Assembly: GCF_003334255.1 (NCBI RefSeq)
Contig: NZ_QOWU01000004.1
Source of the DNA: Escherichia coli
GTDB lineage: Bacteria > Pseudomonadota > Gammaproteobacteria > Enterobacterales > Enterobacteriaceae
DNA: 64,000 nucleotides
Direction: 5' to 3' (one strand)
Both the position numbers and the translations under genes were made by a program. The notes beneath the pieces were generated by a model. It had not been told where the DNA came from and did not search any database. It saw only the letters and a list, made by a program, of their open reading frames with translations. Shown piece after piece: positions 17,790-22,632 of this stretch (positions are counted from its first letter, which is position 1; every line of letters begins with the position of its first letter).

Positions 17790-19078
<1,289 letters not shown>

Positions 19079-19148
19079 TTACGCATAAACAAATGTGAAA
19101 TTATAACCACAAAATATGCATAAAAAATCACTAAATGGCAATCAGAAA

Positions 19149-19712
19149 TCAGCGATGCAGGAAATTAGCCAGCAGTTGATGTCCTTGTTCGCTAAGAATA
19201 CTTTCTGGATGGAACTGCACACCTTCCAGATCCCACTGGCGATGGCGAATCCCCATAATCTCGCGGGTTTCGCTCCAGGCCGTCACGTCAAAGCACGCTG
19301 GTAATGAGTCAGGTTCCACCACCAGCGAATGGTAGCGTGTCACGGTAAGTGGATTTGCCAGCCCCCGAAATACGCCCTCACCGTTATGTGTAATCGGCGA
19401 GGTTTTGCCGTGCATGACCTTTGCGGCGCGCACAACTTTACCGCCAAATGCCTGCGCCATTGCCTGATGACCGAGGCAGACGCCAAGAATCGGCAAGCGC
19501 CCGGCATAGTGGCGAATAACGTCAAGGGAGATCCCGGCTTCATCTGGCGTACAGGGGCCAGGTGAGATGACAATTTTTTGTGGTTTAAGGGCGTCGATAT
19601 CCGCCAGCGTCAACGCATCGTTGCGCTTAACCAGCACATCCGCCCCCAGTTCACAAAAGTACTGGTAGAGGTTCCAGGTAAAAGAATCGTAGTTATCTAT
19701 AAGCAGGATCAT
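19149..19712 (-). CDS. pabA: Aminodeoxychorismate synthase glutamine amidotransferase subunit PabA (187 aa)
   Basis: ORF track; [19 protein letters not shown]...; catalytic GVCLGHQ Cys motif. Confidence 0.95.
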
Positions 19713-19743
19713 GGCGGCTCCGGTACAAAAGAACCGCGCTATT

Positions 19744-20346
19744 TTACTCAGATTCCCCGGCTTCGCTTACCACTTTGCTAAATATCATCTGCAGTGCGGT
19801 GAGATCCCCCATTGCCCCACTCTGATTTGCCTGATTCCAGGCCTCTTTTTCGATACCCTGCCAGCTCAGTTGATATCCGGCATGAATCGCCAGTTGCTCG
19901 AAGAAGATCCGCTGTGCCAGACCACTTCCCACCCGGAAGGGATGCAGCACGTTGATTTCACAATAGTAATGCGCCAGCCGCTCGACGAACTTCGCTTTCT
20001 CCAGGCCAACCAGATAACCTTCTTCCTCCAGATCCTGCATCAGGGCATTGCCCTCTTTTTCGATATAAGCAAAGTGGCAGAACGGCGTATCACCCTGATA
20101 AATATCAACTTCACGCAGTTGCCCTGCCCAGTCGAAAATATCCTGATACAGCTGGCGATGGATAGTTCGCAAATGCGGTAAACCGCGCACCAGCGGACCA
20201 AGCTCAATGGTCGCAGCACGCAGCGCCGTCATTTCGTAAGCGGCCTGTTCCAGCCGCTGCTGCTGGCGGATGTTCAGCCGGTTACGCATGATATCAAGGC
20301 CTGGATAAAGATACGGATCGCGCCCTTCGCCGAATTTATCGCTCAT
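19744..20346 (-). CDS. fic: Fic-domain protein (200 aa) with non-canonical FIC motif [12 protein letters not shown]
   Basis: ORF track; G55 present in PLVRG; motif at residues 135-146. Confidence 0.93.
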
Positions 20347-20503
20347 AGTGACTCCTCAGCTCTTCAAGGCGCGCTAAAGCCTCTGCGGCAGTAAGAGTGA
20401 CTAAAGGCATCTCGACGCCTTCAAGACGGCGACTGGCCTGAAAATTACGATTACGCTGAAGCTCCCAGAGACGGGACTTTTGCTTATCGGTGAGTTTCTT
20501 CAC
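20336..20503 (-). CDS. yhfG: Small Fic-associated protein YhfG (55 aa), antitoxin-like, GTG start
   Basis: Manual translation of minus strand: GGAGG RBS then [58 protein letters not shown]; stop overlaps fic start by 11 nt; below the 60-aa cut-off of the ORF track. Confidence 0.8.
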
Positions 20504-20576
20504 TTGATGCCTCCCTGAACGTGTCCATTTGCCACAAGTATAAGCGGCAAATCCGGGTTACGCCGGGAGAGCAGAA

Positions 20577-20598
20577 GCGCGGGCAAGATTGCCCGCGC
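20577..20598. other. GC-rich hairpin downstream of ppiA (possible terminator)
   Basis: gcgcgggcaagattgcccgcgc inverted repeat; no strong T-run, so terminator function uncertain. Confidence 0.35.
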
Positions 20599-20607
20599 GA
20601 GAAATCA

Positions 20608-21189
<582 letters not shown>

Positions 21190-21310
21190 TTAACAAACAG
21201 AGCAGAAAAAAAGCAAGTGAAGAGATTCTAAATAGCCTTCAAGAACAAGGCCATCCCTTTACCTAATTTTACGTATCTGAAATATATGTAACCTGACGAT
21301 CACTTTTTAT

Positions 21311-21330
21311 TCCGTGATCAAAATCACCTC
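21311..21330. promoter_or_regulatory. CRP-like binding site in the ppiA-tsgA divergent region
   Basis: cGTGAtcaaaaTCACc fits TGTGA-N6-TCACA; 14-bp palindrome GTGATcaaaATCAC. Confidence 0.5.
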
Positions 21331-21450
21331 TTAAAATGCAATTTAGCAACCGATTGCAATAAAACATTTAAACAGATCACAAAATCACCTAAAATCGCCC
21401 GCTCGCGGCATATCCCGCTATGCCATTTTATTTTTGAACGCAGGCCAATC

Positions 21451-22632
21451 ATGACTAACAGCAATCGCATCAAGCTCACATGGATTAGCTTTCTCTCCTA
21501 CGCACTGACTGGTGCGTTGGTTATTGTCACCGGGATGGTGATGGGAAATATCGCCGATTATTTCAATCTGCCTGTTTCCAGTATGAGTAATACCTTCACC
21601 TTCCTCAACGCCGGCATTTTAATCTCTATCTTCCTCAACGCCTGGCTGATGGAAATCGTCCCGTTGAAAACGCAGTTACGTTTTGGCTTTCTCCTGATGG
21701 TGCTGGCGGTTGCCGGTTTGATGTTCAGCCACAGCCTGGCGCTGTTCTCGGCGGCGATGTTCATTCTCGGGGTGGTCAGCGGCATCACCATGTCGATTGG
21801 TACATTCCTGGTAACACAAATGTATGAAGGGCGTCAGCGCGGTTCCCGCCTGTTATTTACCGACTCCTTCTTCAGTATGGCTGGGATGATTTTCCCAATG
21901 ATCGCCGCGTTTCTACTGGCGCGCAGCATTGAGTGGTACTGGGTTTATGCCTGCATCGGGCTGGTGTATGTCGCTATTTTTATTCTGACCTTCGGCTGTG
22001 AGTTCCCGGCGCTGGGCAAACATGCGCCAAAAACGGATGCTCCGGTAGAGAAAGAAAAGTGGGGGATCGGCGTACTGTTTCTCTCTGTTGCGGCGTTGTG
22101 CTACATCCTCGGTCAGTTAGGTTTTATCTCCTGGGTGCCTGAGTATGCCAAAGGCCTGGGCATGAGCCTGAACGACGCGGGCACGCTGGTGAGTAACTTC
22201 TGGATGTCATACATGGTCGGCATGTGGGCGTTCAGCTTTATTCTTCGCTTCTTTGATTTGCAACGCATTCTGACCGTACTGGCTGGTCTGGCTGCGATTC
22301 TGATGTACGTCTTTAACACCGGAACACCAGCACATATGGCGTGGTCAATTCTCGCTCTGGGCTTCTTCTCCAGCGCGATCTATACCACCATCATCACCCT
22401 GGGTTCACAGCAGACCAAAGTACCGTCGCCAAAACTGGTTAACTTTGTCCTGACCTGCGGAACCATCGGTACTATGTTGACCTTTGTGGTTACCGGCCCG
22501 ATCGTTGAACATAGCGGTCCGCAGGCGGCACTGCTTACAGCAAACGGTCTGTACGCTGTCGTCTTTGTGATGTGCTTCCTGTTAGGTTTCGTCAGCCGTC
22601 ACCGTCAGCATAACACCCTGACCTCTCATTAA
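21451..22632 (+). CDS. tsgA: MFS-type transporter TsgA (393 aa)
   Basis: ORF track; 12 predicted hydrophobic segments; [26 protein letters not shown]... Confidence 0.92.

Follow-up and report, generated by a model that had tools for sequence, protein, structure and literature searches.

The yhfG-fic pair of Escherichia coli has already been covered in a structural study by Stanger, Harms, Dehio and Schirmer (PLoS One 2016; PMC5033356), so that the observation described below is not new. The genes were renamed ecficA and ecficT in that work, and both chains, YhfG and Fic, are found in PDB entries 5JFF and 5JFZ. EcFicT binds EcFicA in a stable 1:1 complex with a Tm of 63 °C, which the E28G substitution lowers by 10 °C. 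The SRRLEG sequence of EcFicA is a canonical inhibition motif, and its S24 and E28 contact R146 of Fic in the crystal structure. The authors described a "somewhat degenerated signature motif" in EcFicT, with Leu replacing the first arginine (R1) and a hydrophobic residue at the acidic position, and neither auto- nor target-adenylylation could be demonstrated, regardless of whether the inhibition motif was mutated. They proposed that a new substrate binds in a clade-specific hydrophobic pocket composed of A36, T40, Y67, F71 and V139. The pair was found to be vertically inherited at a fixed position between ppiA and pabA, the Δfic strain is viable, and the fic-1 (G55R) allele resembles a gain of function (PMC5033356).

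Two other FIC systems are close enough to be informative. VbhT/VbhA of Bartonella schoenbuchensis (PDB 3SHG, 3ZC7, 3ZCB) is the prototype class I FicTA toxin-antitoxin, in which R2 of the signature is salt-bridged by a Glu of the partner. Fic-1/AntF of Pseudomonas bijieensis 2P24 (PDB 8WT0; PMC13327609) is the closest solved relative with demonstrated activity. Fic-1 AMPylates GyrB, and the complex that it forms with AntF deAMPylates, which needs E28 and a stable complex; the reaction requires a divalent metal, and a negatively charged cleft is made by E29, E36 and E139 together with E28 of AntF (PMC13327609). The same paper, published in June 2026, still terms the mechanism of EcFicT elusive. 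More remote members of the superfamily show that an altered FIC signature can go with altered chemistry, as Doc of phage P1 (Doc/Phd) is a kinase and AnkX of Legionella carries out phosphocholination (PMC5033356).

We analyzed a 64,000-nt stretch of an E. coli genome, referred to here as the window. The gene for the class I FIC-domain protein, fic (EcFicT), occupies 19744..20346 on the minus strand and encodes 200 aa from an ATG start. The gene for its FicA-type partner, yhfG (EcFicA), lies at 20336..20503 on the same strand and encodes 55 aa from a GTG start. The two open reading frames share 11 nt, ATGAGCGATAA (20336..20346, minus strand), running from the start codon of fic to the stop codon of yhfG. 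A preliminary description of the locus, made from the letters alone, had given yhfG the same length, start codon and overlap, and the coordinates of the open reading frames bear it out; its residue numbers and coordinates were also sound, but the span it gave to the pair (19909-20503) stops at the Fic motif, and fic continues to 19744. Downstream, pabA (19149..19712, minus strand) follows 31 nt after fic as context outside the Fic module, with argD beyond it. The upstream flank is ppiA (20608..21180 in the list of open reading frames), and past ppiA lies tsgA on the opposite strand.

The identity of the two proteins was clear from family models and from structures. Fic matched PF02661 of Pfam (E 1.5e-13, residues 58-152) with H135 present, as expected of the Fic/DOC superfamily, and reached 430 bits with the NCBIfam equivalog NF007672, whose cut-off is 181. 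YhfG matched PF10832 of Pfam (E 5.4e-24, residues 2-55), which places it in the YhfG family, and reached 126.9 bits with the NCBIfam equivalog NF007573, whose cut-off is 77. In phmmer searches of all PDB chains, Fic found 5JFZ_A and 5JFF_A with E values of 1e-133 to 1e-134, and YhfG found 5JFF_B with an E value of 6e-31 and identity over 55/55 aligned residues. The crystallized constructs differ from the proteins of the window by H27 in place of R27, by S2G where the tag is joined, and by the engineered mutations G55R and E28G. Fic was also matched by the PADLOC candidate-defence family PDC-S04 (E 4e-75). The 921-bp locus is 100% identical to that of E. coli genomes which include a strain named J53-p130; J53 is a K-12 derivative. 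The pair is the yhfG-fic (ecficA-ecficT) module of the E. coli chromosome and the Fic family's founding member, and its degenerate motif, inhibitory motif and ppiA-pabA locus are all identical to those of the crystallized EcFicT/EcFicA. A small gene upstream, the 11-nt overlap and the encoded S24RRLEG29 together give the layout of a class I FicTA module.

The signature motif of Fic in the window reads H135-P-F-R-V139-G-S141-G-L143-A-Q-R146 (19909..19944, minus strand). Set against HxFx[D/E]GNGRxxR, the acidic residue is replaced by V139, the Asn by S141 and R1 by L143, and Fic thus does not carry the canonical AMP-transferase signature. In the search of PDB chains, the region formed an ungapped alignment with NALHPFREGNGRTLREFIWQL from VbhT and NVVHPFREGNGRAQRILFEHL from Fic-1; a longer alignment, likewise ungapped, pairs it with LNALHPFREGNGRTLREFIWQL of VbhT and INVVHPFREGNGRAQRILFEHL of Pseudomonas Fic-1. 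Both reference proteins are experimentally proven AMP-transferases. No second match to H.F..G.G...R was found in the whole Fic protein, so the canonical residues are not concealed elsewhere in it. The V, S and L replacements that were read off at first sight are therefore genuine, and the alignment to characterized Fic proteins, which had been suggested as a check, confirms the register.

The altered motif is a property of the whole clade. Across the 120 closest clusters, which were formed at the 90% identity level, are 79-100% identical to Fic and come from Escherichia, Salmonella, Citrobacter, Klebsiella and Leclercia, the signature reads H-P-F-R-[LIVF]-G-[SN]-G-[LMI]-[AV]-Q-R, with the exceptions of one C at 138 and one C at 141. 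Position 139 is hydrophobic and position 143 is L, M or I in 120/120 of these clusters, and position 141 is S or N in 119/120. When the search was widened to 1.84 billion proteins, from which the 150 best representatives at the 50% identity level were taken, 112 of the 150 had the fully canonical motif. Only three full-length representatives among these 150 were without the GNGR core, two belonging to the enterobacterial clade and one being an outlier (P0236, 511 aa) with the motif HPFRRGNGLAIR. The remaining non-canonical entries among the 150 were enterobacterial fragments, one low-quality translation, or sequences changed only at or next to R2. Within the species, comparison across strains, another check suggested at the outset, found the Fic motif and SRRLEG kept in the most divergent E. 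coli sampled (96-98% DNA identity), apart from V139A in one strain, N96.

We compared the alignment columns of 113 close and 127 canonical relatives, all full-length. The three signature positions separate the groups: position 139 is L, I, V or F in the close clade and E or D in 122/127 canonical relatives, position 141 is S or N as opposed to N in 123/127, and position 143 is L, M or I as opposed to R in 122/127. Four positions outside the signature behave in the same manner, namely 36 (A in the close clade; E in 121/127 canonical relatives), 67 (Y; F in 123/127), 71 (F; Y in 115/127) and 84 (Q; K in 120/127). Residue 55, which is changed in the classical fic-1 (G55R) allele and whose codon was computed to lie at 20182..20184 on the minus strand, is Gly in 113/113 close homologues, whereas 102/127 canonical relatives have Asp there. 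The close clade (113/113) shows no variation at H135, P136, F137, G140, G142 and R146. The comparison reproduces the specificity positions that were already published. A non-catalytic binding role would match the same pattern of conservation.

Is the altered site then maintained by selection? The yhfG-fic locus was present in 5426/5426 complete E. coli genomes, and a contiguous copy was missing in only 2 of them. The gene order tsgA-ppiA-yhfG-fic-pabA-argD is common to Salmonella, Klebsiella, C. koseri and Leclercia, all of which also have a 55-codon yhfG and the identical 11-nt overlap, with 31-32 nt separating fic from pabA; across five other loci this gap is 31-33 nt. By the Nei-Gojobori method, dN/dS was 0.03-0.08 for fic in comparisons with other genera and 0.05-0.09 for yhfG in comparisons with three genera, against 0.05-0.08 for pabA and about 0.03 for ppiA, all of these values being rough as dS is saturated. 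Purifying selection on both genes is as strong as on pabA, and the signal is unambiguous despite the saturated dS. As strong purifying selection maintains the altered site itself, Fic is probably functional; as the acidic Mg2+ ligand, R1 and, in part, the Asn are lost, it is most likely something other than an AMP-transferase.

The distribution bears on the question of whether the pair is a toxin-antitoxin (TA) system. The pattern that is typical of, though not strictly defining for, mobile type II TA systems, namely patchy occurrence, transfer and variable context, is not seen with yhfG-fic, because the pair is universal in E. coli and has an identical context in four other genera. The operon layout and the complex expected of a TA pair are both present, and secondary accounts differ as to whether wild-type EcFicT is toxic (PMC5033356 versus PMC10886550). 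Disruptions or fusions turn up occasionally, and an IS-disrupted fic occurs in E. coli MS 21-1.

The inhibitory-helix motif of YhfG, S24-R-R-L-E28-G29, is encoded at 20417..20434 on the minus strand and conforms to [S/T]xxxE[G/N], as the preliminary description had stated. Taken alone, the motif is weak evidence, as [ST]xxxE[GN] is expected by chance in about 2% of 55-residue stretches of the proteins in the window and in 4% of shuffled YhfG sequences. We aligned YhfG of five enterobacterial genera with the small open reading frames found upstream of three FicT genes that are distant and have canonical motifs. In this 8-sequence FicA/YhfG alignment, no internal column is invariant except S24, L27, E28 and G29, so that S-x-x-L-E-G is as invariant in the E. 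coli clade as in the partners of active toxins. A search of PDB sequences with YhfG returned nothing but YhfG itself, even at E <= 10, and the evidence for its kinship to VbhA and AntF consists of the motif, the PF10832 matches of two of the canonical FicT partners and the published structures. The PF10832 match of YhfG, its invariant S/E/G motif and its co-crystal with Fic support the assignment of YhfG as a class I FicA-type partner.

Signals for the expression of both genes are conserved as well. A GGGAGG Shine-Dalgarno sequence (20510..20515, minus strand) lies 6 nt upstream of the GTG of yhfG, and CAGGGAGG is invariant in five genera. The GTG start is supported because Klebsiella yhfG has an ATG start at the unchanged position. 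The fic gene has its own AGGAG Shine-Dalgarno sequence (20352..20356, minus strand) within the 3' end of yhfG and 5 nt upstream of the ATG, and the junction (A/G)GGAG(G/T)CACTATGAGCGATAA, that is, (A/G)GGAG(G/T)CACTATG, is kept in five genera. No RNA structure hiding the ribosome-binding site of fic was detected at the yhfG/fic junction beyond that of shuffled sequence (z = 0.14), and Rfam, searched at E <= 1 with the two strands of 18500-22000, returned no RNA family. The overlap makes the translational coupling claimed in the preliminary description plausible, though fic has its own AGGAG and no structure that would enforce coupling was detected.

Between the terminator hairpin of ppiA (20577-20598) and the Shine-Dalgarno sequence of yhfG sits a 22-nt block, TTGCCGCTTATACTTGTGGCAA (20529..20550, minus strand), with a TATACT -10-like hexamer at 20537-20542 as part of a putative promoter. 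The block has the form TTGC(C/T)GCTTATACTTGTGGCAA and is identical in five genera save for the one C/T column. A scan for the sigma-70 consensus called no promoter upstream of yhfG; as the scan does not model sigma-S promoters, the assignment comes from the conserved TATACT block. The yhfG-fic genes are among the RpoS-dependent operons of O157:H7 (PMC2907692) and have been listed as a multi-stress-induced hub (PMC9501238), and the block is probably the stationary-phase promoter of yhfG-fic. On the other side of the pair, no terminator-like site was found on the minus strand in the fic-pabA gap, which makes read-through into pabA likely and pabA a probable operon partner of fic. Our literature search for a link between fic, pabA and folate brought up only papers on the "FIC index". 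A connection of fic with p-aminobenzoate or folate was reportedly made by Komano et al. in 1991.

Taken together, the findings point to a Fic that is functional and gated by YhfG, that acts as something other than an AMP-transferase and whose pocket has been remodeled for a different ligand or phospho-donor, and we consider this the probable explanation. The pair, of class I FicTA type, took a fixed place between ppiA and pabA in the Enterobacteriaceae and is inherited vertically. The two genes would be co-transcribed from the conserved RpoS-type promoter upstream of yhfG, a step for which the literature offers support, and the overlapping frames, each with its own Shine-Dalgarno sequence, may provide matched amounts of YhfG and Fic. 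In the published complex, YhfG binds Fic 1:1 and places S24 and E28 on R146, the arginine that ends the FIC motif. Fic retains His135 as the catalytic residue, the Pro, Phe and Gly with structural roles and R146, while the Mg2+-binding acid, the Asn (in part) and the ATP-binding R1 have given way to V, S and L, with the second-shell positions A36, Y67 and F71 changed alongside. The pocket remodeled in this way most likely holds a different ligand or phospho-donor and may still be gated by YhfG.

The strongest alternative to a catalytic role is that Fic is a pseudoenzyme or scaffold, in which catalysis has been lost and the stable YhfG-Fic complex would work in stationary phase through the binding of a ligand or a protein and not through its modification. 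The Mg2+ and ATP ligands are gone from Fic, no activity of it has been detected since the discovery of the gene (PMC5033356, PMC13327609), and the complex is very stable (PMC5033356); moreover, the Δfic strain is viable (PMC5033356) and the IS-disrupted fic of E. coli MS 21-1 is tolerated. The conservation of the site speaks against it. While the Pro, Phe and Gly of the signature are structural, His135, the anion-nest glycines and R146 are not needed structurally and yet are invariant in 113/113 close homologues, and the conserved pocket beside the signature loop suggests that a small molecule is bound at the catalytic site (PMC5033356). We regard the pseudoenzyme as unlikely.

Another possibility is that the working enzyme is the YhfG-Fic complex and not free Fic, either as an eraser of modifications or as some other complex-dependent catalyst that would employ E28, H135 and R146. 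By analogy with the Pseudomonas system this is conceivable, and we hold it to be doubtful. If it applied, it would explain why E28, H135 and R146 are invariant although the ATP and Mg2+ ligands are lost, and why the complex is unusually stable; it would also explain a vertically inherited, RpoS-controlled housekeeping unit upstream of pabA in place of a mobile TA system. In its specific form, the complex would be a deAMPylase-like hydrolase using E28 of YhfG and H135 of Fic, in the manner of Fic-1-AntF. That complex is colinear with EcFicT-YhfG down to the residue numbers of H135, R146, S24 and E28, its deAMPylase activity depends on E28 and a stable complex (PMC13327609), and the E. coli clade keeps exactly H135, R146 and S24/L27/E28/G29 while the AMPylation-specific residues are lost. 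Of the deAMPylase residues, E28 and H135 are present and invariant in the E. coli pair, but Fic-1-AntF needs a metal and the cleft of E29, E36 and E139 (PMC13327609), and the cleft positions of EcFicT are Q29, A36 and V139. No partner AMPylase whose action would be reversed was identified in this analysis either, and a hydrolase of this specific kind appears to us improbable.

The reading of the pair as a decaying TA relic, an inactivated toxin with a useless antitoxin on its way to loss, is very improbable and was rejected as largely refuted. In its favor, the catalytic motif is degenerate, the Δfic strain is viable (PMC5033356) and disruptions or fusions are occasionally present. Against it, all 5426 E. 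coli genomes have the pair and all but 2 have it as a contiguous copy, its dN/dS is as low as that of pabA, conservation across genera extends to the degenerate residues, and the Shine-Dalgarno sequences are conserved together with the overlap and the promoter block. The preliminary description had left the choice between an inactive relic and a Fic with a different chemistry. The second agrees with the proposal made in 2016 (PMC5033356), and the first is disfavored by the dN/dS of 0.03-0.09, the conserved motif and the universal locus.

The preferred explanation, a YhfG-gated Fic with a remodeled pocket, has to be seen in relation to what has been written about EcFicT since 2015. Two reviews, both citing Harms et al. 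2015, attribute growth inhibition or topoisomerase AMPylation to EcFicT (PMC10886550; PMC8097203), in conflict with the 2016 statement from the laboratory of Harms et al. itself that no adenylylation could be shown (PMC5033356). We give more weight to the later statement of the authors and to the sequence evidence than to the reviews. The sequence features were analyzed in depth in 2016, and the finding itself adds nothing new to the field. What the data on a 2026 scale do is to confirm the altered active site as a conserved and selected state and not as decay. The fic-1 phenotype was described over 40 years ago, and the mechanism of the founding Fic member is still called "elusive" (June 2026, PMC13327609), for which these sequence features are the reason; the sole fresh angle is the deAMPylase activity reported in 2026 for a colinear Fic-antitoxin complex (PMC13327609).

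Among solved relatives with a demonstrated activity, Fic-1/AntF stands closest to the E. coli pair. Fic-1 and EcFicT align with an E value of 2e-49 and are colinear over residues 1-196, and H135 and R146, as well as S24 and E28 of the partner, bear the same numbers in both pairs. Fic-1 carries HPFREGNGRAQR, and EcFicT is without its E139, R143, E36 and E29. VbhT aligns with EcFicT over residues 5-185 (E 6e-33); the two proteins share 33% identity and superimpose with an rmsd of 1.36 Å (PMC5033356). Like EcFicT/YhfG, VbhT/VbhA combines a FIC fold with a small upstream partner carrying [S/T]xxxE[G/N], with three helices in VbhA and two in YhfG (PMC5033356). VbhT, however, has the canonical HPFREGNGRTLR and AMPylates gyrase and topoisomerase IV, whereas EcFicT has V, S and L in its signature and its AMPylation went undetected (PMC5033356). 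VbhTA resides on the plasmid pVbh, whereas yhfG-fic is a fixed core locus.

Membership among Doc-like kinases or AnkX-like phosphocholinases was considered and rejected: Doc and AnkX were not retrieved by the Fic sequence search of PDB chains at E <= 0.01, and their signature variants differ. Doc has K for the second G and AnkX has DANGR, and both retain the acidic residue, the Asn and R1. EcFicT, unlike Doc and AnkX, is without all three. The signature of EcFicT is thus a third kind of variant, because the residues that are kept in Doc and AnkX are the ones that it has lost. Three relatives with canonical motifs (37-45% identity) each have a small upstream open reading frame abutting or overlapping the Fic gene. 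Two of these three open reading frames match PF10832, and the 11-nt overlap is also found at one canonical FicTA locus, L009. The neighborhoods of the canonical relatives are mutually unrelated, and two of them contain other TA/Abi genes (HigB-like, AbiEii). The E. coli pair has therefore kept the ancestral class I architecture at a fixed core-genome locus, with its active site remodeled.

The assignment of an activity to EcFicT, the 200-residue Fic protein of this locus, differs between sources. In two reviews EcFicT is said to inhibit growth or to AMPylate gyrase and topoisomerase IV (PMC10886550, PMC8097203), whereas the structure paper of the originating laboratory states that adenylylation by EcFicT could not be demonstrated (PMC5033356). 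The conflict looks like either an annotation error that was passed on or an unsettled point in Harms et al. 2015. At codon 27 (20266-20268) the window encodes Arg27; the crystallised EcFicT constructs 5JFF and 5JFZ carry His27, which also occurs in at least one further protein cluster (P0004). Codon 55 (20182-20184) encodes G55, the residue replaced in the classical fic-1 allele (G55R). Since Gly is fixed in the close homologues (113 of 113) and Asp predominates in the canonical FicT relatives (102 of 127), position 55 is, judged from these alignments, a clade-specific position and not a generally conserved glycine.

A contiguous copy of the locus, defined as at least 80% of the query covered, was absent in only 2 of the 5426 complete E. 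coli genomes. One of the two is E. coli MS 21-1 (L006; NZ_CP146670.1, 466490-472999), in which fic is interrupted by the IS21-family element ISEc10 while yhfG, ppiA and pabA are undamaged. This split gene shows that the loss of fic is tolerated.

Two other variants join the genes into one reading frame. In the first (P0001, 15 member sequences in Logan), the AGGAGT immediately 5' of the fic ATG, at the equivalent of window 20347-20358, has a 1-nt deletion that places yhfG in frame with fic and also disrupts the fic Shine-Dalgarno sequence. The product is 252 aa long with the junction EELRVTMSDKF, and may be a genuine variant or a sequencing error. The second (P0122; L005, 1011-1613; Logan run ERR4228981) is a single 200-aa ORF in a syntenic context between ppiA and pabA, where the yhfG-fic span is 157 nt below normal length. 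A YhfG-like N-terminus of approximately 33 aa is joined to Fic from residue ~37 onward, the inhibitory motif is changed to SSRLDI, and the Fic motif reads HPFFVGSGRAQR, with the first Arg retained. This fusion, known from one 2.7-kb contig, may represent a natural re-fusion into a single chain, a deletion that causes inactivation, or an assembly error.

On the minus strand, the ppiA terminator is followed, ahead of the yhfG Shine-Dalgarno sequence, by a conserved 22-nt block, TTGC(C/T)GCTTATACTTGTGGCAA (20529-20550), with a single variable column (C/T) across E. coli, Salmonella, Klebsiella, C. koseri and Leclercia. Within this block the imperfect inverted repeat TTGCCGC / GTGGCAA brackets a -10-like hexamer, TATACT; the block is probably the RpoS-type promoter, possibly accompanied by an operator. 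At the other end, the fic-pabA spacer (19713-19743 in the window, with equivalents in the comparison loci L001-L005) keeps a length of 31-33 nt across six loci of different genera, and no terminator-like hairpin was found in it. Such a spacer implies, from sequence, that yhfG, fic and pabA would be transcribed together and that Fic would have an old and lasting linkage to this p-aminobenzoate synthesis gene.

The Fic protein (19747-20346) strongly matches the PADLOC candidate phage-defence family PDC-S04 (E 3.9e-75). The E. coli copy resides in a housekeeping neighbourhood, whereas two distant canonical FicTA loci adjoin HigB-like or AbiEii genes.
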